This document shows positions 2,727-25,336 of a stretch of 30,232 nucleotides of DNA, piece after piece. The first letter of the stretch is position 1, and every line of letters starts with the position of its first letter. Where the stretch lies: the IMG/VR virus record IMGVR_UViG_2897333091_000004, one strand, 5' to 3'. The position numbers and the translations under genes are program-made. This stretch comes from a virus. Its lineage: Duplodnaviria; Heunggongvirae; Uroviricota; Caudoviricetes. Under the pieces are notes generated by a model. It made no database searches and was not told the origin of the DNA. It was given only the letters and a program-made list of their open reading frames with translations.

Positions 2727-2848
2727 GAAACCAGAACATGCACACACAAAAAAACCGCTTGCCATGCCGCAATCGGTCAGGTTACATTTCCGCTGCACCT
2801 CATAAAACGGGTGCCGGGATTCTCAACCCGATACAGAGCAAAGCGCAT

Positions 2849-2869
2849 AACCGCGCCAGCGGTTTTTTT
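2849..2869 (+). terminator. rho-independent terminator
   Basis: Hairpin AACCGC-GCCA-GCGGTT followed by a T7 run. Confidence 0.6.
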
Positions 2870-2881
2870 GTGCGTACTGTA

Positions 2882-2910
2882 TTGCCACGTCTTTTTCGCG
2901 TCAGAATTAT
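2882..2910 (+). promoter_or_regulatory. candidate sigma70 promoter
   Basis: TTGCCA (-35), 17-nt spacer, AATTAT (-10), just downstream of the terminator and upstream of the structured leader. Confidence 0.35.
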
Positions 2911-3016
2911 GGCGGGGCGTACGGGGCCGACTTCGGTCGGGCCGGATTCTTTGCTCTCCGGTGTTGAGAACCCTGTACGTCTCGCCACCCCGAGATTCTC
3001 AACTCTGGATGGTGAG

Positions 3017-3116
3017 NNNNNNNNNNNNNNNNNNNNNNNNNNNNNNNNNNNNNNNNNNNNNNNNNNNNNNNNNNNNNNNNNNNNNNNNNNNNNNNNNNNN
3101 NNNNNNNNNNNNNNNN
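3017..3116. other. assembly gap (100 N); the contigs on each side share an identical 127-bp terminal sequence
   Basis: 2890-3016 is identical to 3117-3243. Confidence 1.
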
Positions 3117-3275
3117 TCTTTTTCGCGTCAGAATTATGGCGGGGCGTACGGGGCCGACTTCGGTCGGGCCGGATTCTTTGCTCTCCGGTGTTGAGAACCC
3201 TGTACGTCTCGCCACCCCGAGATTCTCAACTCTGGATGGTGAGTTATTTCTATCACCGAGCAAAGAGGCCACACC
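3117..3275 (+). promoter_or_regulatory. structured 5' leader: strong UUCG-tetraloop hairpin plus nested stems that sequester the SD of the downstream gene
   Basis: Hairpin GGCCGAC-UUCG-GUCGGGCC at about 3152-3170. A central element (3171-3200) contains CTTTGCTC and GTTGAGAA, complementary to TTCTCAAC (3223-3230) and GAGCAAAG (3258-3265); the latter overlaps the AAGAGG SD of the ATG at 3276. Confidence 0.45.
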
Positions 3276-3506
3276 ATGGCAGACCGCAAACAGCACCGCG
3301 CTATCGCGGAGCGTCGTCACATCCAGACTGAAATCAACCGCAGACTTTCCCGCGCATCACGCGTCGCGCAAATCATGCACATCAATATGCTGCATGAGCG
3401 CAGCCACGCACTATCAAACATTTATTCCGCCTCTGTTTTCAGCTATCTGGCGGATGATCTGCACGAGCTTCAACAGCTCATCCAGCAGCAAAACAAACTC
3501 CATTAA
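3276..3506 (+). CDS. hypothetical small basic protein (76 aa), first gene of the replication operon
   Basis: ATG with AAGAGG SD; a near-identical paralog lies at 6320-6550. Confidence 0.6.
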   Translation: MADRKQHRAIAERRHIQTEINRRLSRASRVAQIMHINMLHERSHALSNIYSASVFSYLADDLHELQQLIQQQNKLH

Positions 3507-3578
3507 TTCCTGTTCCGGGCCTTTCCTGCACCTTGCGGCGGGAGGCCTTCGCACATCTGTAACAAGAGGATTGCCGCA

Positions 3579-3944
3579 ATGATTCTCGCCAACGACTTTC
3601 TTGAATACCTGCTCAACACAGAACGTGATCTTGCCGCTCGCGTGCGTGATCGTTATGACATGTACCTGAAATCCCTGCCTGTACCGCAGCTCGCTGACGG
3701 AAAGATTGTTATTGATGGTCGCTACATGATTGACAGCCACGAGGGAAATTACAGGCTTTACCGCATTGAAGGTGGCACCCCGTCCGTTATTGGCATTTAC
3801 CAGCGCCCATCCTCTGCAATCGTCGATGTGATTGCCGACAGCATCCGCATCACACATCGCCATGCCGACACAGAAGACACCGTGCTGGAAATTCAGCGGC
3901 TGGCTACCGTCTGCCGCGACACCCTGAATGGCATGACGAAGTAA
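3579..3944 (+). CDS. hypothetical protein (121 aa) immediately upstream of gpA; positional analogue of the P2 B / 186 CP-type replication accessory genes
   Basis: ORF ending 6 nt before the gpA start; weakly similar to its counterpart at 6623-7012. Confidence 0.55.
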   Translation: MILANDFLEYLLNTERDLAARVRDRYDMYLKSLPVPQLADGKIVIDGRYMIDSHEGNYRLYRIEGGTPSVIGIYQRPSSAIVDVIADSIRITHRHADTEDTVLEIQRLATVCRDTLNGMTK

Positions 3945-3950
3945 ATCACT

Positions 3951-6060
3951 ATGACGGCAGAGTACATCAGGGACTGGCAACAACCGCGCCACGCAGTAGG
4001 ACGTGAAGGAACGGGGATCCCCGTTCCTGAATCCGCGCTTTCCTCCTGGCTGGATGCCTACCGGGTAGAGAACGAGCGCCGCCAGGAAATGGCTGATGCG
4101 GCGTTCTCCGCCACGCCGCTGGGCAACCTGATTAATAAAAGCCTGGACGCACAGGAAAAACAGGACAAAACCATCACACTGGCAGGAGACGCCAGAAAGC
4201 AGGTACGCGGCGCGGTGGATGAAGCCATGGCCTCGCTGCGCCTGCTGCCATCCTATCTGCGCGATCCGCTTATTCGCCACCTCTCCTTCCTGCGCAAAAA
4301 ACAGGAATCTGACCGCCAGAAAGGTAAAAAGAACCAGCAGGCTGAACGCTACGCGCGCGGGACCCTGCGCAAAATATTCGAACGTCTGGACCGCACCGAC
4401 CACCGCTGGCTGACACCGGGTTATCGCTCCCTTGCCGGACGCGAACGCCTGGATGATTTGCTTTACCTCCCGCAACTCAACAAGCACCAGATACAGACGC
4501 TGGCCACCATGACGGCAGCGATGTTCAGCAGCACCTTCGAAAAACTCTGCGATGGCTTTGGCGCGACCGATGGCGAGCTGACCATGGATGTAACCCTGAA
4601 GGCGTATCAGATGCTGGCCCGCATGGCGTTACACCTGCACGCCATGCCTCCACATTATGACGCACTGACAACAGACAAAGACCGGAGGAACGAACCGGAC
4701 ACGGAGCTGCTGCCGGGCGCAGTCCTTCGCCTGACCTGTGCGCAATGGTGGAAACGCAAACTGTGGCTGTTACGTTGCGAGTGGAGAGAAGAACAACTCC
4801 GCGCCACCTGTCTGGTTTCCAGAAAAACATCGCCCTATCTGAGCCAGGACGCGTTAAGCGAGTTTCGCGCACAGCGCGAGAAAACACGCGATTTCCTGAA
4901 AAGTTTCATGCTGGAAAATGAAGACGGGTTCACGATTGATCTCGAGACGGTGTATTACGCGGGAGTAAGTAACCCGGTTCACCGTAAGGCAGAAATGATG
5001 GCCACCATGAAGGGGCTGGAACTTCTGGCCGAAGCCCGTGGCGACAAAGCGGTGTTTCTGACTGTCACCTGCCCGTCAAAATACCACGCCACAACAGAGA
5101 ACGGTCATCCGAATCCCAAATGGAACGGGGCCACCATGCGCGACTCCAGCGATTATCTGGTTAACACGTTTTTTGCGGCGGTCCGCAAAAAACTGAACCG
5201 CGACGGCCTGCGCTGGTATGGCATCCGCACGGTGGAGCCTCACCATGACGGCACCGTGCACTGGCATATGATGGTCTTTGCTCATCCGGAAGAAATCGAC
5301 AGCATCGTGGCCATCACCCGCGATATTGCCATTCAGGAAGACCGCCACGAGCTGGGCAATGATATTACTCCGCGCTTTAAGGTGGAGTACGTCGACGGCT
5401 CCAAAGGCACGCCAACCAGCTACATCGCCACCTACATCGGAAAAAACCTGGACAGCCGCGCCGTGGATGGAATCGACCCGAAAACGGGCAAACCACGCGT
5501 TGACCACGAAACCGGAAAATCAATGGCCGAGAGCGTGGAGCGCGCCATCGGCTGGGCGCGCCTTCATCGGGTCCGCCAGTTCCAGTTCTTTGGCATCCCC
5601 TCCCGTCAGGTGTGGCGTGAACTGCGCCGCCTTGCCAGCCAGATGGCACGCAACCCGGAAGGCCCGCAACGGCTGAAGGATGACGCAATGGATGCGGTAC
5701 TCGCTGCCGCTGATGCCGGATGTTTTGCCACCTACATTGAAAAACAGGGTGGCGTACTTGTTCCGCGCAAGGACTACCTGATTCGCACAGCCTACGACCT
5801 CGCAGATGAGCTGAACGATTACGGCGAACAGAGTGTACAGATTTACGGGATCTGGTCGCCATTCATCGGGGAATCCTCCCGTGTGTGCACGCATCCGGAT
5901 AACTGGAAGCTGGTAAGACGTAAACCGGAAGCGGAAGACAGCGCCCGCGAAAATGGTTTTGACCTTCAGGGCGGCCCTGCCGCCCCTTGGACTCGTGGCA
6001 ATAACTGTCCCCGTGTACAGGAAACGGACAACAACGGGACAGAACAGCCGGAAGAACGGC
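3951..6060 (+). CDS. A: P2 gpA-like rolling-circle replication initiator (HUH endonuclease), allele 1; 3' end cut by the contig edge
   Basis: HUH motif in GTVHWHMMVFAHP and paired catalytic tyrosines in TSYIATYIGKN (YxxxY), the hallmark of phiX174-A/P2-A superfamily initiators. The track ORF continues through the N run artificially. Confidence 0.75.
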
Positions 6061-6160
6061 NNNNNNNNNNNNNNNNNNNNNNNNNNNNNNNNNNNNNNNN
6101 NNNNNNNNNNNNNNNNNNNNNNNNNNNNNNNNNNNNNNNNNNNNNNNNNNNNNNNNNNNN
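6061..6160. other. assembly gap (100 N)
   Basis: Run of 100 N. Confidence 1.
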
Positions 6161-6319
6161 TCTTTTTCGCGTCAGAATTATGGCGGGGCGTACGGGGCCG
6201 ACTTCGGTCGGGCCGGATTCTTTGCTCTCCGGTGTTGAGAACCCTGTACGTCTCGCCACCCCGAGATTCTCAACTCTGGATGGTGAGCTATTTCTATCAC
6301 CGAGCAAAGAGGCCACACC
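6161..6319 (+). promoter_or_regulatory. second copy of the structured leader (first 127 bp identical to 3117-3243)
   Basis: Identical sequence, including the UUCG hairpin and the SD-sequestering stem, ahead of the ATG at 6320. Confidence 0.45.
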
Positions 6320-6550
6320 ATGGCAAACCGCAAACAACAGCGCGCATACGCTGCGCGTCGTCACATCCAGACTGAAATCAACCGTAGACTTTTCCGCGCA
6401 TCACGCGTCGCGCAAATCATGCACATCAATATGCTGCATGAGCGCAGCCACGCGCTATCGAACATCTATTCCGCCTCTGTTTTCAGCTATCTGGCGGATG
6501 ATCTGCGCGAGCTGCAACAACTCTTCCAGCAGCAAAACAAACTCCATTAA
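6320..6550 (+). CDS. hypothetical small basic protein (76 aa), paralog of 3276-3506
   Basis: About 90 percent identical translation (MANRKQQRAYAARRHIQTEINRR...). Confidence 0.6.
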   Translation: MANRKQQRAYAARRHIQTEINRRLFRASRVAQIMHINMLHERSHALSNIYSASVFSYLADDLRELQQLFQQQNKLH

Positions 6551-6622
6551 TTCCTGTTCCGGGCCTTTCCTGCACCTTGCGGCGGGAGGCCTTCGCACAT
6601 CTGTAGTAAAGAGAATTGCAGC

Positions 6623-7012
6623 ATGATTGACGCTCATGACTTCACAAGATGGGTGCGCACACAGGACACCCGTCTGGCTCCCGTTCTTCAGGGATTATTT
6701 GATCTCTACATCCGTGGTCGTGACAACAGAGCACGCACCACAAAACCGGAGAATGCAGACACCCTTTATTTCACAGTAGACGACTGCTACCGCGTGGACT
6801 TCACACCACACGGGCTGGCGTTGCACTGCCTGACACCACACGGAGAATCACTGCTGGCGTATTACGACTCCCCGGCCTCCGTATTTGCGGCAATGCTGGC
6901 GCATCGCACTGCTGGCGGGTGTGCCTCGCTGAGTGAATACACCGCTGAATTTAACCGCCTTTCTGCCCTCTTCTCGCAGGAGTGGCAGCGCGTGACGGGA
7001 TACCAGCCATGA
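6623..7012 (+). CDS. hypothetical protein (129 aa) upstream of gpA allele 2; divergent counterpart of 3579-3944
   Basis: Its stop overlaps the gpA allele-2 start (ATGA at 7009-7012). Confidence 0.55.
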   Translation: MIDAHDFTRWVRTQDTRLAPVLQGLFDLYIRGRDNRARTTKPENADTLYFTVDDCYRVDFTPHGLALHCLTPHGESLLAYYDSPASVFAAMLAHRTAGGCASLSEYTAEFNRLSALFSQEWQRVTGYQP

Positions 7013-9136
7013 ATGAGTTTGCATGGAGCTGGAATGAACCACGGCCAGCCATTGATCCGGCCAGATTTACGGAGCACAGGCAGGAAACTGAAACCGACCT
7101 GCAACGCGCCATCCGTTACTACCTTGAGGCAGACAAAAAGGCTCTGGAAGAACAGGAAGCGAAGGAGGAAGCCTTTTTCGCACAATCCACCGTGGGTAAA
7201 AAACTCATGGCATCCCTTGAGGAAGCCGGACAGCGTGAAAAGCTGGCACAAAGCATCATCAGCAAGCGTCAGGCAACAGAACAAGACCCGGTGGCCCGTG
7301 CTTTTGCCACACTGAAGGTGCTTCCCGTTTATCTGCGTGAACCTCTGAGCCGCCACCTCTCTTTCCTGCGCAAAAAACAGGAAGCCGATCGCCAGAAAGG
7401 CAAAAAGAGCTGGCAGGCTGAACGCTACGCGCGCGGAACCCTGCGCAAAATATTCGAACGCCTGGACCGCACCGACCACCGCTGGCTGACACCGGGTTAT
7501 CGCTCCCTTGCCGGACGCGAACGCCTGGATGATTTGCTTTACCTGCCGCAGCTCAACAAGCACCAGATACAGACGCTGGCCACCATGACGGCGGCGATGT
7601 TCAGCAGCACCTTCGAAAAACTCTGCGATGGCTTTGGCGCGACCGATGGTGAGCTGACCATGGAGGTGGCACTGAAGGCGTATCAGATGCTGGCCCGCAT
7701 GGTGTTACACCTGCACGCCATGCCTCCACATTATGACGCACTGACAACAGACAAAGACCGCAAGAACGAACCGGACACGGAACTGCTGCCGGGCGCAATC
7801 CTCCGCCTGACCTGTGCGGAATGGTGGAAACGCAAACTGTGGCTGTTACGTTGCGAGTGGCGGGAAGAACAACTCCGCGCCGCCTGTCTGGTTTCCAGAA
7901 AAACATCGCCCTATCTGAGCCAGGACGCGTTAAGCGAGTTTCGCGCACAGCGCGAGAAAACACGCGATTTCCTGAAAAGTTTCATGCTGGAAAACGAAGA
8001 CGGGTTCACGATTGATCTCGAGACGGTGTATTACGCGGGAGTAAGTAACCCGGTCCACCGTAAAGCAGAAATGATGGCCACCATGAAGGGGCTGGAACTT
8101 CTGGCCGAAGCCCGTGGCGACAGAGCGGTGTTTCTGACTGTCACCTGCCCGTCAAAATACCACGCCACAACAGAGAACGGTCATCCGAATCCCAAATGGA
8201 ACGGGGCCACCATGCGCGACTCCAGCGATTACCTGGTTAACACGTTTTTTGCGGCGGTCCGCAAAAAACTGAACCGCGATGGCCTGCGCTGGTATGGCAT
8301 CCGCACGGTGGAGCCTCACCATGACGGCACCGTGCACTGGCATATGATGGTCTTTGCACATCCGGACGAGATTGAAACCATCGTGTCCCATGTCTGCGAT
8401 ATTGCCATTCAGGAAGACCGCCACGAGCTGGGCGATGACATAACTCCGCGTTTTAAGGCTGAGTACGTAGACGGCTCAAAAGGCACGCCAACCAGCTACA
8501 TCGCCACCTACATCGGAAAGAACCTGGACAGCCGCGCCGTGGATGGCATCGACCCGAAAACGGGCAAGCCACGCGTTGACCACGAAACCGGAAAATCAAT
8601 GGCAGAGAGCGTGGAACGCGCCATCGGCTGGGCGCGCCTTCACCGGGTCCGCCAGTTCCAGTTCTTTGGCATTCCCTCTCGTCAGGTATGGCGTGAACTC
8701 CGCCGCCTTGCCAGCCAGATGGCACGCAACCCGGAAGGCCCACAACGGCTGAAGGATGATGCAATGGATGCGGTACTCGCTGCCGCTGATGCCGGGTGTT
8801 TTGCCACCTACATTGAGAAACAGGGCGGCGTACTTGTTCCACGCAAAGACTACCTGATTCGCACCGCCTACGACCTCGCAGATGAGCTGAACGATTACGG
8901 CGAGCAGAGTGTACAGATTTACGGGATCTGGTCGCCGCTCATCGGGGAGTCTTCCCGTGTGTGCACACATCCGGATAACTGGAAGCTGGTAAGACGTAAA
9001 CCTGAAGCAGAAGACAGCGCCCGCGAAAATGGTTTTGACCTTCAGGGCGGCCCTGCCGCCCCTTGGACTCGTGGCAATAACTGTCCCCGTGTACAGGAAA
9101 CGGACAACAACGGGACAGAACAGCCGGAAGAACGGC
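7009..9136 (+). CDS. A: P2 gpA-like rolling-circle replication initiator, allele 2; continues across the gap into 9237-10076
   Basis: Same HUH and YxxxY motifs. About 97 percent identical to allele 1 after roughly residue 110, but the N-terminal ~110 residues are unrelated. The ATG at 7009 overlaps the upstream stop. Confidence 0.75.
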
Positions 9137-9236
9137 NNNNNNNNNNNNNNNNNNNNNNNNNNNNNNNNNNNNNNNNNNNNNNNNNNNNNNNNNNNNNNNN
9201 NNNNNNNNNNNNNNNNNNNNNNNNNNNNNNNNNNNN
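9137..9236. other. assembly gap (100 N); flanking contigs overlap by an identical 127-bp sequence
   Basis: 9010-9136 is identical to 9237-9363. Confidence 1.
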
Positions 9237-10076
9237 GAAGACAGCGCCCGCGAAAATGGTTTTGACCTTCAGGGCGGCCCTGCCGCCCCTTGGACTCGTG
9301 GCAATAACTGTCCCCGTGTACAGGAAACGGACAACAACGGGACAGAACAGCCGGAAGAACGGCCAGCACCGTGGCCGCAGCTCCCTGACGGCATTGAAGT
9401 GAATGAATGGATGCGCTCACTGAAACGGCACGAACGCCGGGCACTGATGCGTTCGCTGCGTGACAAACAGGCCAAAAACAGCAGTGATGAAATGCAGAAC
9501 TGGACACAGAGCCGCAAACAGCCACAGCCTTTGCCTGATAACCACGAATTACTCGCTAAAGAATGGCGGGAGTCTGCCGAATCTCTCGGCCTGCATATCG
9601 GTGAACAGCAGATGCAGCACCTGTTACGGGGCGGCAGCCTGTACGTTGACGGCAGCATCATTGCACCGCAGGGATTTGAAATTGTACGCAAACCGGATAC
9701 CCGCCCGGACAGCCGAATCACGCAGCTCTGGCAGCGCCTGAGCCGTAATCACGGCGTAAGCAGCACGGAGATCCGCCATAACCCGGTCGCCAGCTATCTG
9801 GCACAGCTCGGGGCATCAGACCCCGAAGCCGCCGCACGCCTGACATCCACACTTCAGCAGGACCAGAACACCATGAAAACACCCGTTACCGTGCTTTCTG
9901 ACATGCTGCGCGCCATTCGTGACGCAGAGCACGCACAGAGAATCAGTGAAACCACTGAACGCGCCCGCCGCAAAGCAGACCTGCTGCGGGGTAGCCTGAT
10001 CAGTGGCAACAAAAAACAGACAGAAACGGGATTCACAAATCCCGCAAATGAGCAAAAAACACGCCGCGATATATGA
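9237..10076 (+). CDS. A: C-terminal part of the gpA-like initiator (in frame with the pre-gap sequence through the 127-bp overlap)
   Basis: Frame 0 reads EDSARENGFDLQGG...TEQPEERPAPWPQLPDGIEVNEWMRSLKRHERR... without stops to 10076. The track ORF 9399-10076 is the distal part of the same frame. Confidence 0.6.
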   Translation, partial: EDSARENGFDLQGGPAAPWTRGNNCPRVQETDNNGTEQPEERPAPWPQLPDGIEVNEWMRSLKRHERRALMRSLRDKQAKNSSDEMQNWTQSRKQPQPLPDNHELLAKEWRESAESLGLHIGEQQMQHLLRGGSLYVDGSIIAPQGFEIVRKPDTRPDSRITQLWQRLSRNHGVSSTEIRHNPVASYLAQLGASDPEAAARLTSTLQQDQNTMKTPVTVLSDMLRAIRDAEHAQRISETTERARRKADLLRGSLISGNKKQTETGFTNPANEQKTRRDI

Positions 10077-10152: not shown

Positions 10153-11112
10153 ATGAAAATTTGTATCGACGACGGCTCCACCAACATCAAGCTGGCATGG
10201 ACTGAAAACGGCGAACGCCGCAACGCCATCAGCCCGAACAGCTTCAAGTCGGAATGGTCTGCGCCGTTCGGTGGCTCGCAGCCTGCGAACTACATGCTTG
10301 ATGGCGTGCGCTATGGTTTTGATCCGGTCAGCGATCGCTTTGTCCAGACGACCGACACGCAATACCAGTACAGCGATGTGAATGTCATTGCCATTCATCA
10401 CGCGCTGGTCAAATCAGGCATCACGCCACAGGAGGTGGATGTGGTTGTCACCCTGCCACTGAGCGAGTATTTCGACACAAACGCACAGCCGGACATGGCC
10501 AACATCAACCGCAAAAAAGCGAACGTTATGCGCCCGGTGGAGTACCAGAACGGCGAAGCATTCACTATCCGTAACGTGCGGGTTATGCCTGAATCCATTC
10601 CGGCCGGCTTTAAGGCACTGGCTGACATGAGTCCGTTTGAATCCCTGCTGATTGTGGATTTGGGCGGAACCACGCTGGATGTGGCAAAGGTTCAGGGGCA
10701 ACTGGCAGGTATCAGCCAGGTGTTTTGCGATCCACACGTAGGCGTTTCTCTGATGGCCGATGCCGTACTGTCGGTGATGGCCACTAACGGTATGCGCACC
10801 AGTCACCACATCGCCAATACCATTATCGAACATCGCCATGATGAAGCCTGGCTGCGCCAGCACATCCACAATGACGCACATTACGCCAGCCTGATGGCGG
10901 TTATTCGTGAAAAGGAAGAAACACTGAAACAACGCGTGATCCGCGCGCTGGCGGGTTTTTCGGGTTACGGGCGGGTGATGGTTGTAGGTGGAGGAGCGGA
11001 GATTGTGGCACCCGCTATCCGCGAAGCCTGCGGAGTTAATGCGACTTTCATCGCGGACGGGGTGCCACAGTTTGCTCTGGTTAATGGGCTGTACGCAATG
11101 GACAAGGAGTAA
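10153..11112 (+). CDS. parM: ParM/StbA-type actin-like plasmid segregation ATPase
   Basis: Recalled alignment to plasmid R1 ParM over the whole length: IDDGSTNIKL, ISPNSFK, YSDVNVIAIHHAL, MPESIPAGF, DLGGTTLD, VGGGAE. Confidence 0.85.
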   Translation: MKICIDDGSTNIKLAWTENGERRNAISPNSFKSEWSAPFGGSQPANYMLDGVRYGFDPVSDRFVQTTDTQYQYSDVNVIAIHHALVKSGITPQEVDVVVTLPLSEYFDTNAQPDMANINRKKANVMRPVEYQNGEAFTIRNVRVMPESIPAGFKALADMSPFESLLIVDLGGTTLDVAKVQGQLAGISQVFCDPHVGVSLMADAVLSVMATNGMRTSHHIANTIIEHRHDEAWLRQHIHNDAHYASLMAVIREKEETLKQRVIRALAGFSGYGRVMVVGGGAEIVAPAIREACGVNATFIADGVPQFALVNGLYAMDKE

Positions 11113-11318: not shown

Positions 11319-11418
11319 NNNNNNNNNNNNNNNNNNNNNNNNNNNNNNNNNNNNNNNNNNNNNNNNNNNNNNNNNNNNNNNNNNNNNNNNNNNNNNNNNN
11401 NNNNNNNNNNNNNNNNNN
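11319..11418. other. assembly gap (100 N)
   Basis: Run of 100 N. Confidence 1.
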
Positions 11419-11721
11419 GACATAACCGTCTTTGATGGCACCGATATAATCCACTGTAACAGCTGCGCCATTTTCAGTTGAGTAAACGGTCTCATTGCGA
11501 TGGTCTTCTTCATGGCTCCATCCCTTACCCGTAAATACTGCCACTCTTCCCGGAATGTATTCGCCCGGGTCAATACCAGTGGAACAAGCGGGCATACTTA
11601 CGCCAGTATTAATATATTCATCAGACCAGCCCGTATACTCAGATGTTTCAGCATCATAATAAAAACAACGCATATCGCCCGGCACTGTAGCCAGCCCATT
11701 TTCATCAAAAACAGGTTTCAT
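11419..11721 (-). CDS. tail fibre assembly protein (lambda Tfa / Mu U family), N-terminal part; C-terminus lost in the gap
   Basis: MKPVFDENGLATVPGD...IPGRVAVFTGKGWSHEEDHRNETVY matches the conserved N-terminal Tfa region (recalled lambda Tfa motif VAVF...W.LVEDHRGKTVY). Confidence 0.6.
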
Positions 11722-12218
11722 TATTTAGCCCTCACCAGAAAGTTAAATGCAATATTTCGCGGTCTGACAGCAACAAAATTCACACCATCACCCACAGAGT
11801 TACTGGTGAAATTAAATCGTGAAAATCCTGGCTGATTTCCGGCGATGCCATCATGAAAGTTAATTGCGTGTCCTGCACCTCCGCCTATATTCCCGGCAAA
11901 CTGAGAAAAGTTTGTAGCTTCCTGCCAGCTTAATAATTCGCGACCACCATCGGCACCTCGCCCGTCATCCCAGATACGAATGAAATCACCGCGGGCTTCA
12001 GGTAATACCAGTGAAGGAAACACTTTCGCCAGCACAGGGTAATCAGAGGCAGAAAATTTCGCCCCGTTGAACTTCAAAAACACCATACTGGACCAGCTGT
12101 CGATTACAGTATTTGGCATTGCAGCGGACGGCCAGAAGAACGGAACGCCAATAGCTGGAGCACCTTCTCCCAAACCAACGTTTAAGAAAATGCAGAGATT
12201 ACGGCTAACTGGCATCAT
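11721..12218 (-). CDS. tail fibre C-terminal variable domain, probably a silent invertible-segment copy with no start of its own
   Basis: Glycine-rich tail-fibre-like C-terminal sequence directly followed by the tfa gene; its N-terminus runs through the candidate crossover site next to the invertase gene, as in the Mu G or P1 C segment. Confidence 0.5.
   Translation of the reverse strand: MMPVSRNLCIFLNVGLGEGAPAIGVPFFWPSAAMPNTVIDSWSSMVFLKFNGAKFSASDYPVLAKVFPSLVLPEARGDFIRIWDDGRGADGGRELLSWQEATNFSQFAGNIGGGAGHAINFHDGIAGNQPGFSRFNFTSNSVGDGVNFVAVRPRNIAFNFLVRAK
12165..12190. promoter_or_regulatory. candidate Hin/Gin/Pin-family crossover site (gix/hix-like)
   Basis: TTCTCCCAAACCAACGTTTAAGAAAA shares about 17 of 26 positions with the recalled gixL sequence, including the AAACC...GTTT core; located about 55 bp upstream of the invertase start. 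Confidence 0.35.
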
Positions 12219-12245
12219 CCCCGGTTTTTATTCAGGGGATCCATC

Positions 12246-12845
12246 ATGCTTATTGGCTATGTCCGCGTATCAACAAATGACCAGAATACAGAATTGCAGC
12301 GTAACGCGCTGGAGTGCGCAGGATGTGAACTGATTTTTGAAGATAAAATCAGCGGAACGAAATCAGCCAGACCGGGATTGAAAAAACTGCTCAGAACGCT
12401 ATCAGAAGGAGATACGCTGGTTGTCTGGAAGCTGGACAGACTGGGCAGAAGTATGAAACACCTGATCACGCTTATTGAGGAATTGCGGGAAAAAGGTGTT
12501 AATTTCCGTAGTCTAACGGACAGCATTGACACATCAACACCCATGGGGCGTTTCTTTTTTCACGTCATGGGAGCTTTAGCCGAAATGGAACGTGAATTAA
12601 TTGTAGAGCGTACACTGGCCGGGCTGGCAGCAGCACGCGCACAAGGACGCATTGGCGGACGTCGCCCGAAGTTGACAAAAGAACAACACGAGCAAATAGC
12701 GAGGCTGATTAAAAACGGTCATGACAGGAAACAACTGGCGATCATTTACGACATCGGCATATCGACGATTTATCGTTATCACCCTGTAGGCGATATACAG
12801 GCTGAAGAAACAACCAGGCAGACTCAGGAAAATGAAAACCGCTAA
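12246..12845 (+). CDS. pin: serine-recombinase DNA invertase (Pin/Gin/Cin/Hin family)
   Basis: MLIGYVRVSTNDQNTELQ... with the catalytic Ser in the VRVSTNDQ block and a C-terminal HTH; very close to recalled E. coli Pin sequences. Confidence 0.9.
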   Translation: MLIGYVRVSTNDQNTELQRNALECAGCELIFEDKISGTKSARPGLKKLLRTLSEGDTLVVWKLDRLGRSMKHLITLIEELREKGVNFRSLTDSIDTSTPMGRFFFHVMGALAEMERELIVERTLAGLAAARAQGRIGGRRPKLTKEQHEQIARLIKNGHDRKQLAIIYDIGISTIYRYHPVGDIQAEETTRQTQENENR

Positions 12846-20088: not shown

Positions 20089-20188
20089 NNNNNNNNNNNN
20101 NNNNNNNNNNNNNNNNNNNNNNNNNNNNNNNNNNNNNNNNNNNNNNNNNNNNNNNNNNNNNNNNNNNNNNNNNNNNNNNNNNNNNNNN
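20089..20188. other. assembly gap (100 N)
   Basis: Run of 100 N. Confidence 1.
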
Positions 20189-24638: not shown

Positions 24639-25142
24639 TTACTGATAGTGTTTTATGTTCAGATAATGCCCGATGACCTTGTCATGCAGCTCCACCGATT
24701 TTGAGAACGACAGTGACTTCCGTCCCAGCCTTGCCAGATGTTGTCTCAGATTCAGATTATGTCGCTCAATGCGCTGAGTGTAACGCTTGCTGATAACGTG
24801 CAGCTTTCCCTTCAGGCGTGATTCATACAGCGGCCAGCCATCCGTCATCCATACCACGACCTCAAAGGCCGACAGCAGGCTCAGAAGACGCTCCAGTGTG
24901 GCCAGAGTGCGTTCACCAAAGACGTGCGCCACAACCGTCCTCCGTATCCTGTCATAAGCGTAAAACAGCCAGCGCTGACGTGATTTAGCACCGACGTAGC
25001 CCCACTGTTCGTCCATTTCAGCGCAGACAATCACATCACTGCCCGGTTGTATGCGCGAGGTTACCGACTGCGGCCTGAGTTTTTTAAGTGACGTAAAACC
25101 GTGTTGAGGCCAACGCCCATAATGCGTGCACTGGCGCGACAT
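24639..25142 (-). CDS. insB: IS1 InsB (transposase frame, expressed as InsAB' by a -1 frameshift)
   Basis: 167-aa ORF overlapping the insA 3' end in the -1 frame. Confidence 0.9.
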
Positions 25143-25336
25143 CCGACGCCATTCATGGCCATATCAATGATTTTCTGGTGCGTACCGGGCTGAGAGGCGG
25201 TGTAAGTGAACTGTAGTTGCCATGTTTTACGGCAATGAGAGCAGAGATAGCGCTGATGTCCGGCAGTGCTTTTGCCGTTACGCACCACGCCTTCAGTAGC
25301 GGAGCAGGAAGGACATCTGATGGAAATGGAAGCCAC
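25061..25336 (-). CDS. insA: IS1 InsA
   Basis: [42 protein letters not shown]..., an InsA variant. Confidence 0.95.

Follow-up and report, generated by a model that had tools for sequence, protein, structure and literature searches.

The window analysed here is a stretch of 30,232 nucleotides of viral DNA (Caudoviricetes; IMG/VR record IMGVR_UViG_2897333091_000004). It is discontinuous, containing six runs of exactly 100 N, and its segments 3117-6060 and 6161-9136 are alternative branches that are ~95% identical and have the same flanks. The early region consists of a divergent C-like repressor gene, Cox, several small ORFs, an isrK-like RNA, a C4 RNA, two genes encoding proteins of 76 and 121 residues, gpA and ParM, in this order. 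In addition to Cox and the C-like repressor, the element carries P2-type tail genes, and as judged from its sequence it is a P88-like prophage of E. coli (Xuanwuvirus, Peduoviridae, P2-family). About a quarter of the complete E. coli genomes (1280 of 5426) contain the region, and both RNAs are missing from the RefSeq annotation, the RefSeq genome having no RNA annotated at the locus. The two RNAs, their boxes, the promoter-like site at 2759-2788 and the three genes described below lie on the + strand.

The first gene downstream of the RNA elements (3276-3506, with a copy at 6320-6550 in the alternative branch) encodes the protein of 76 residues. This protein matches PF25738 (the "Derepression" family) with 32.5 bits at a cut-off of 27, and shares 32% identity over 50 residues with epsilon of phage P4 (BLASTP, E=6e-9), which itself matches PF25738 end to end with 170 bits. 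RefSeq names the protein 'derepression protein'. According to PMC8628076, which cites Liu et al. 1997, epsilon inactivates the P2 repressor, and the identity to P4 epsilon points to a putative anti-repressor role of the 76-residue protein. The second gene (3579-3944) encodes a protein of 121 residues belonging to phrog_3237, with a 129-residue version at 6623-7012 in the alternative branch. The third gene encodes the P2-type replication initiator gpA. It occupies 3951-6060, where it is cut by the contig end, and continues at 9364-10076, giving a full length of ~940 residues by path reconstruction; it matches PF05840 with 435.9 bits and is named 'replication endonuclease' in RefSeq. The original prediction had described this unit as a replication operon. 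The gene for gpA does lie downstream, but the gene gated first encodes an epsilon-type 'derepression' protein; the operon therefore combines a putative anti-repressor with replication and is not a purely replicative one.

A search with the Rfam covariance models revealed a C4 antisense RNA (RF01695) at 3132-3219, with 78.5 bits against a cut-off of 45 and an E-value of 5e-14, covering model positions 1-87 of 87. The same result was obtained in the finished genome. C4 consists of a long closing stem, hairpin 1 (CCGAC-UUCG-GUCGG), hairpin 2 and an ACC-type 3' tail. The GGCCGAC-UUCG-GUCGGCC hairpin that had been predicted for the leader is indeed present, but it is hairpin 1 of C4 itself rather than a separate leader hairpin. 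Folded alone, C4 adopts the Rfam family structure with a minimum free energy (MFE) of -47.5 kcal/mol, leaving its two recognition boxes, b' and a', both unpaired. The b' box (UCUUUGCUCU, 3175-3184), whose partner is b1 or b2, occupies the loop of hairpin 2, and the a' box (GUUGAGAA, 3190-3197), whose partner is a1 or a2, occupies the single-stranded junction. The two sequences first assigned to this central element, CTTTGCTC at 3176 and GTTGAGAA at 3190, fall within these boxes. A tRNA-like stem and the ACC tail are seen in the C4 sequence on the Rfam structure. No tRNA was found in the window; therefore, the tRNA-like shape of C4 is not that of a tRNA gene.

Upstream of C4, the segment 2795-2869 matches the isrK family (RF01394) over its full length with 62.8 bits (cut-off 50), and yields 15.9 bits on the c4-a1b1 family (RF03163) vs a cut-off of 46.7. 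This IsrK-like or seqA-like small RNA has a pair of hairpins, which appear in the computed fold, together with a single-stranded linker and a putative Rho-independent terminator. It carries two boxes. The a1 box (UUCUCAAC, 2820-2827) lies in the loop of hairpin 2 and is the complement of a', and the b1 box (AGAGCAAAG, 2835-2843) lies in the linker and is the complement of b'. Both sequences predicted for this upstream site, TTCTCAAC at 2820 and GAGCAAAG at 2836, were found, and the terminator proposed to follow them was recovered by a terminator scan as a terminator-like site at 2849-2869, with a stem at 2849-2864 and a T-run.

Promoters were located by a consensus scan, and the promoter and terminator coordinates were mapped from the locus L001 (L001 3370-3399 corresponds to 2759-2788 of the window). 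A sigma-70-like promoter, TTGCCA-18-TACATT, lies at 2759-2788, from which transcription would be expected to start at ~2795, where the isrK model begins. Its hexamers are conserved and its spacer is variable in 10 P88-like loci, and it is the analogue of PLE in P4 and of P51a/b in P1. The original prediction had placed a promoter at 2882-2910, between the terminator and C4. A promoter-like match (TTGCCA-17-AATTAT) does exist at this site, but it is poorly conserved and badly placed for C4. The -35 hexamer varies among the relatives (TCGCCA, TCGTCA), the spacer has a 6-nt deletion in one relative, and the -10 hexamer overlaps the 5' leader of C4, with a start ~7 nt downstream that would fall inside the closing stem and truncate it. 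The annotated promoters of P1 are both upstream of a1 as well. The match at 2882-2910 was rejected as the main promoter of C4, which it probably is not; a more likely source of C4 is the processing of transcripts that read through or come from the early operon, as in P4.

A second pair of target sites is found downstream of C4. The a2 box (UUCUCAAC, 3223-3230) begins 4 nt past the end of the C4 model. The b2 box (GAGCAAAGA, 3258-3266, or to 3268 with the Shine-Dalgarno sequence) overlaps the Shine-Dalgarno (SD) sequence AAGAGG at 3263-3268, which lies 7 nt ahead of the start codon of the epsilon-like gene. The predicted downstream boxes (TTCTCAAC at 3223 and GAGCAAAG at 3258), the overlap of b2 with AAGAGG and the ATG at 3276 were all verified in the sequence. 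The overlap of b2 with the SD, followed by the start codon, recurs in nearly all of 55 loci.

The complementarity of the boxes was then compared among relatives. A search pattern that fixed the conserved stems of C4 but allowed any sequence in the boxes yielded 120 viral contigs with ~66 b'/a' combinations. The cognate test counted perfect complements of at least 7 nt in the flanks for 62 representative box types and 2754 non-cognate pairs. A complement at b1 was present in 73% of the cognate vs 5.6% of the non-cognate cases, and the corresponding values were 97% vs 6.1% for a1, 77% vs 4.2% for b2, and 95% vs 1.3% for a2. These complements occur at fixed registers. The complementary boxes that the original prediction rested on are thus far beyond chance, with 73-97% cognate vs 1-6% non-cognate. 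The a box typically has 7 nt, and the type found in the window has an eighth pair. Box sets are imperfect in a small number of relatives, at a1 in L016 and at b2 in L030, L052 and L072.

Alignment of 14 P88-like loci revealed a conserved scaffold in which the three box sets change together. For the upstream pairings, 95.0% of the cells are paired and 11 of the 17 pairs have changed on both sides, compared with 24-53% of cells paired in slid-register controls; the pairing of b1 with b' alone has all of its cells paired (100%) and 7 of its 9 pairs changed on both sides. For the downstream pairings, 94.5% of the cells are paired and 10 of the 17 pairs have changed on both sides. The covariation scores are 0.629 vs 0.121 in shuffles for the upstream and 0.648 vs 0.138 for the downstream pairings, neither being reached by any of 500 shuffles; the structure scored here was that of a single aligned locus, and the compensatory changes and the slid controls are independent of that choice. 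The C4 boxes therefore covary with both of their targets, as the pairing scheme of the original prediction implies.

The duplexes formed with the respective C4 box have energies of -11.7 kcal/mol for a1, -12.2 for b1, -10.3 for a2 and -14.3 for b2. The whole leader, which runs from isrK to a little beyond the ATG (L001 3406-3680), was also folded, and its stability is far above that of shuffled sequences (z = -4.67, with 0 of 200 shuffles as stable). In the MFE structure of the leader, b':b2 and a':a2 are paired in cis and the SD is buried. Cofolding of C4 with each target by RNAcofold revealed no energy gain over shuffled targets. Since the nested model of this program cannot represent loop-loop contacts, the cofolding is uninformative rather than negative, and the pairing was judged by box-level duplexes and covariation in its place.

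The arrangement had been likened to the P4 CI/seqA/seqC and P1 c4 systems, and this comparison holds: the window has Rfam matches to both C4 and isrK, and P4 and P1 give corresponding matches in the same order. The IsrK-C4 system has been described for P1, P7, N15, P4 and lambdoid prophages (PMC3632133). In the immI region of P1 and P7, c4 controls icd-ant, and it blocks the translation of ant at the ribosome-binding site (PMC12197685). The C4 of P1 belongs to the same RNA family, with 68.8 bits vs the 78.5 of the window. The P1 record annotates two promoters, a1, b1, a 77-nt C4 RNA, a2, b2 and icd, and the order in P1 is the same as that in the window, namely promoter (putative in the window), a1, b1, terminator-like hairpin, C4, a2, b2/SD and a small first ORF. 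Similar to the window, b' of P1 is located in the hairpin loop and a' in the junction. The spacing is also close, as the distance from a1 to b1 is 14 nt in P1 and 16 nt in the window, that from b1 to C4 is 61 and 62 nt, respectively, and that from the end of b2 to the start codon is 11 nt in both. The upstream element of P1 yields 51.0 bits on c4-a1b1 and 35.1 bits on isrK, the latter below the cut-off. These scores mirror those of the window, so the c4-a1b1 (RF03163) and isrK models describe the same type of element. However, the boxes of P1 (UUGACAG/GUUAGUG) differ from those of the window, and the genes downstream are icd, ant1/2, kilA and repL in P1 but the epsilon-like gene, an ORF and gpA in the window. 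No match to the Ant, KilAC or Icd families was found among the gated genes of the window, the gene content of which is not that of P1 immI. The host phage also belongs to the P2-family, unlike P1.

In P4, seqA, the CI RNA (seqB) and seqC control the left operon (kil ... epsilon, orf151, alpha), and Hershko-Shalev et al. relate IsrK to seqA of P4 (PMC4825925). P4 gives an isrK match of 60.8 bits (seqA) followed, on the same strand, by a C4 match of 74.9 bits (CI RNA), which is the order of the window. P4 has a single promoter upstream of the first site, as is predicted for the window, and the two share a b2 box that runs into an SD (GGAGG in P4) ahead of the ATG and an epsilon-family protein (PF25738) followed by the replication protein of the element. 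The boxes themselves differ, being GUGAGAA (a1) and UUCACAGG (b1), CCUGUGAA (b') and UUCUCAC (a'), and GUGAGAA (a2) and UUCACAGG (b2) in P4. The replication gene encodes a P2-type gpA (PF05840) in the window and the alpha primase-helicase in P4, the first gene behind C4 is epsilon-like in the window and an ORF of the 64-aa type in P4, and the gap between isrK and C4 is ~35 nt in the window and ~108 nt in P4. Between the 64-aa first ORF of the P4-like loci and Icd of P1, BLASTP gave no alignment. The element of the window is a full P2-type phage with tail genes, whereas P4 is a satellite (sid/psu/delta), and the window element is not a member of the P4-like satellites. The module is closest to the P4 arrangement (seqA, CI, seqC, epsilon and replication gene), with a P2-type gpA in the place of alpha. 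Our search of the literature for the IsrK-C4 module in P2-like or P88-like phages found nothing specific.

The locus very probably represents an antisense-RNA immunity module of the C4/IsrK type, a member of the P1 c4 / P4 CI family that lies in the early operon of a P88-like E. coli prophage. We infer the processing of C4, the direction and strength of the regulation and the polarity on gpA, and propose the following mechanism. The promoter at 2759-2788 would give rise to the ~75-nt IsrK-like RNA (2795-2869), which carries a1 and b1 and would end at a modest terminator. C4 (3132-3219) would be contained in the transcripts that read through this terminator, as well as in early-operon transcripts coming from upstream. 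By analogy with P1 and P4, it might be cut out as a stable RNA of about 80 nt (~77-80 nt), with RNase P cutting its 5' end. The excised C4 would display b' in the hairpin loop and a' in the single-stranded junction, and these would pair with b2 (3258-3266) and a2 (3223-3230), either on the leader of their own transcript (in cis) or on separate RNA molecules (in trans). Because b2 covers 4 of the 6 SD bases of the first gene, the translation of the epsilon-like putative anti-repressor gene would be blocked by the pairing with C4, and the expression of the downstream ORF and of gene A would be lowered through loss of coupling and Rho polarity. The upstream copy, a1/b1, would compete for the boxes of C4. 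As a result, it may titrate C4 and activate the operon, as shown for IsrK of Gifsy-1, or be the site of a C4-promoted early termination, as in P4. The box sequences would set the specificity, and different box types would correspond to different immunity groups. Masking of the SD of the epsilon-like gene by C4 through b':b2 and a':a2, with a polar effect on gpA, is the best-supported reading of the locus.

Alternatively, C4 might act mainly as described for P4, pairing with a1/b1 and a2/b2 on nascent transcripts and causing premature termination, which would silence gpA and the epsilon-like gene transcriptionally. The overlap with the SD would then be secondary. CI-dependent termination has been described in P4 (PMC3632133 and the discussion of PMC4825925), and the gene content of the window, with an epsilon homologue and then a replication gene, is nearer to P4 than to P1. 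In addition, the upstream element scores as isrK/seqA-type and not as c4-a1b1, and the only conserved putative promoter lies upstream of isrK, like PLE in P4. However, b2 overlaps the SD in almost all the loci, including P4 itself, as translational control predicts, and no terminator-like site was found on the + strand between b2 and the epsilon-like gene. We regard this alternative as rather unlikely as the main mode of action, although termination and a translation block do not exclude each other. In P1, a translation block is reportedly coupled to Rho-dependent termination, a result attributed to Biere et al. 1992.

The isrK - orf45 (STnc1160) - anrP region of Salmonella phage Gifsy-1 offers a further comparison. 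As predicted for the window, it has an upstream isrK-family RNA with its own promoter and a leaky terminator, a read-through leader that is self-inhibitory, and a gated gene of the anti-repressor type (PMC4825925). IsrK acts there in trans on the read-through mRNA, and a processed RNA of ~80 nt (STnc1160) has been detected (PMC4825925). Gifsy-1 is lambdoid, unlike the P2-family phage of the window, and its C4-like segment has been interpreted as orf45, a small ORF whose translation is coupled to that of anrP, whereas the first ORF of the window starts after b2 and encodes the epsilon-like protein. If the window worked in the same way, the C4 region would be mainly a self-inhibitory leader acting in cis, with its SD sequestered, and the short IsrK-like RNA would be the actual regulator in trans, which activates translation by displacing the inhibitory pairing. 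The MFE of the whole leader, which pairs b'/a' with b2/a2 in cis at the z-score given above, agrees with this, as does the upstream RNA, which is above the isrK cut-off and has its own putative promoter and terminator, and such a mechanism has been shown experimentally for Gifsy-1 (PMC4825925). Against it, C4 has a strongly conserved fold of its own, in which a tRNA-like stem and an ACC tail are characteristic of the RNAs that are processed and act in trans in P1 and P4, and a processed species of ~80 nt is found in Gifsy-1 as well (PMC4825925). A predominantly cis-acting C4 region is rather unlikely in our view, and cis and trans roles can coexist. The translation block of P1, the termination of P4 and the trans-activation by a short RNA in Gifsy-1 are not mutually exclusive.

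The kind, the family and the architecture of this module are already known, and the present copy is ordinary and common. It is a textbook-type antisense immunity switch that the existing Rfam models detect well above threshold, and what sets it modestly apart is that a helper-type phage carries it with an epsilon-like gene and gpA as cargo. Elsewhere, C4 precedes Rha-type and Bro-N anti-repressors, the 64-aa P4-type ORF, a DUF6124 protein and a Tad2-like protein. By standing ahead of an epsilon-type gene and gpA in this phage lineage, the module connects the immunity cassettes found in P2-type helpers with those of P4-type satellites. It is possible, and we suggest it tentatively, that the helper-type P88-like phages of the P2-family carry the IsrK-C4-epsilon cassette of satellite P4, applied to their own gpA replication operon. 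If so, the 76-residue protein would be a C4-gated anti-repressor against P2-type C repressors, be it the one of the phage itself or those of other prophages in the same cell. The many box types within one genus would then define RNA-based immunity groups, and helpers and satellites would have exchanged the cassette. No complete a'+b' specificity was common to the P88-like, P4-like and pRha-type lineages in the sample, where sharing is limited to single a' boxes. For the pairs sampled, this gives no support to a direct cross-talk of satellite and helper through these RNAs. The box types also form a natural panel of specificities for orthogonal RNA switches.

A different view of the region is that it encodes a protein and that the complementarities are incidental. 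An ORF of 205 residues starting at ATG 2738 does exist on the collapsed path, and NC_049391 annotates it as a 'transcriptional regulator'. However, this ORF spans two high-scoring structured-RNA matches and the terminator, overlaps the epsilon-like gene out of frame and is not called by RefSeq PGAP, and the relatives vary mainly in the paired boxes, in a compensatory and not a codon-like manner. A coding function is very improbable, and the 205-residue "transcriptional regulator" with which some phage records cover the RNA pair appears spurious.

The central element of the original prediction had been assigned an identical copy at 2944-2973. The contig ends flanking the N runs of the window share an overlap of exactly 127 bp with 100% identity, one set comprising 2890-3016, 3117-3243 and 6161-6287 and the other 5934-6060, 9010-9136 and 9237-9363. 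Such overlaps of 127 bp mark de Bruijn contigs (k = 127) that were joined end to end with gap spacers. The stretch 2890-3116 consists of the 127-bp duplicate (2890-3016) and a 100-N scaffold gap (3017-3116), and the true sequence was obtained by deleting 3017-3243 or, equivalently, 2890-3116. The collapsed sequence aligns with a finished E. coli chromosome without gaps, with 10 mismatches over 1307 nt, and the finished genome has an intergenic region of 322 bp, where the window has 549 bp (322 + 127 + 100). The copy at 2944-2973 lies inside the 127-bp overlap beside the 100-N gap and is therefore an assembly artefact; the C4 sequence at 2905-2992 is likewise artefactual, and a further one at 6176-6263 belongs to the alternative assembly branch. 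A true tandem duplication with two central elements per locus, which the letters of the window display 227 bp apart, is extremely improbable, since the repeat measures exactly 127 bp, abuts the 100-N gap and has the length of the overlaps at the other junctions, and a single copy is present in the finished genome, in phage genomes and in 14 of 14 aligned relatives. There is only one central element per locus, and the finished E. coli genome yields a single isrK and a single C4 match with Rfam. Scaffold gaps with k-mer overlaps can thus mimic "duplicated" regulatory elements.

The window consists of de Bruijn contigs joined one after another and does not represent a natural contiguous sequence. 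Six scaffold gaps of 100 Ns interrupt it (469-568, 3017-3116, 6061-6160, 9137-9236, 11319-11418 and 20089-20188), and exact 127-bp overlaps were found at the junctions flanking the gaps at 3017-3116, 6061-6160 and 9137-9236. The segments 3117-6060 and 6161-9136 are two alternative branches with common flanks and about 95% identity. The second ORF differs between them, encoding 121 and 129 aa, respectively, and the N-termini of gpA are unlike, yet both carry the same isrK/C4 and the same b2 box. Therefore, the branches derive either from one genome carrying two P88-like prophages with a single RNA-immunity type, or from a mixture of strains. When each branch is joined to 9364-10076, the resulting gpA is about 940 aa long for one and about 955 aa for the other. 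The ORFs listed at 3951-6626 (891 aa) and 6982-9402 (806 aa) both cross N gaps and were rejected as artefacts.

On the collapsed path, from which the N gap and the duplicated 127-bp overlap were removed, an ORF of 205 aa starting at window position 2738 spans both RNA elements, isrK and C4, as well as the terminator; it also overlaps the epsilon-like gene. The corresponding coordinates in two of the compared sequences are 3312-3929 (L002) and 8168-8584 (L003). The 205-aa ORF is labelled 'transcriptional regulator' in NC_049391; likewise, the P4 record retains a 'cI gene product' CDS on top of the CI RNA. RNA annotation of the isrK/C4 locus is absent in NZ_AP038246, the RefSeq E. coli genome examined.

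Some relatives among the viral contigs carry imperfect box sets. The upstream a1 box of L016 (TTCTCAC) is mismatched to its own a' recognition box (GTGGAAA); its own a2 does match a'. The b2 boxes of L030, L052 and L072 match b' only in part. These four sets could be immunity-type recombinants or decaying copies. In two further viral contigs, L010 and L063, b2 lies on the SD of a different first gene behind C4, whose 85-aa product is Tad2-like (PF11195, 27.7 bits against a cut-off of 25). Such a gene would place an anti-Thoeris-type counter-defence under C4 control.

Directly 3' of gpA, the P2-type prophage carries a ParM gene (10153-11112). This plasmid-segregation gene is full-length, with StbA_N and the ParM C-terminal domain, and its presence there hints at plasmid-like maintenance as an option for the prophage. 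At 11721-12845, a DNA invertase (phrog_125) adjoins a C-terminal fragment of a tail fibre, an arrangement that probably marks a Cin/Gin-type invertible segment for host range.

The segment 20189-30232 is an unrelated contig encoding the M and S subunits of a type I restriction-modification system and a tyrosine integrase. It is covered to at least 80% in only eight complete E. coli genomes, at about 94% identity. A 242-bp repeat with 93% identity (227-468 and 25016-25257) links the first small contig with this restriction-modification/integrase contig.
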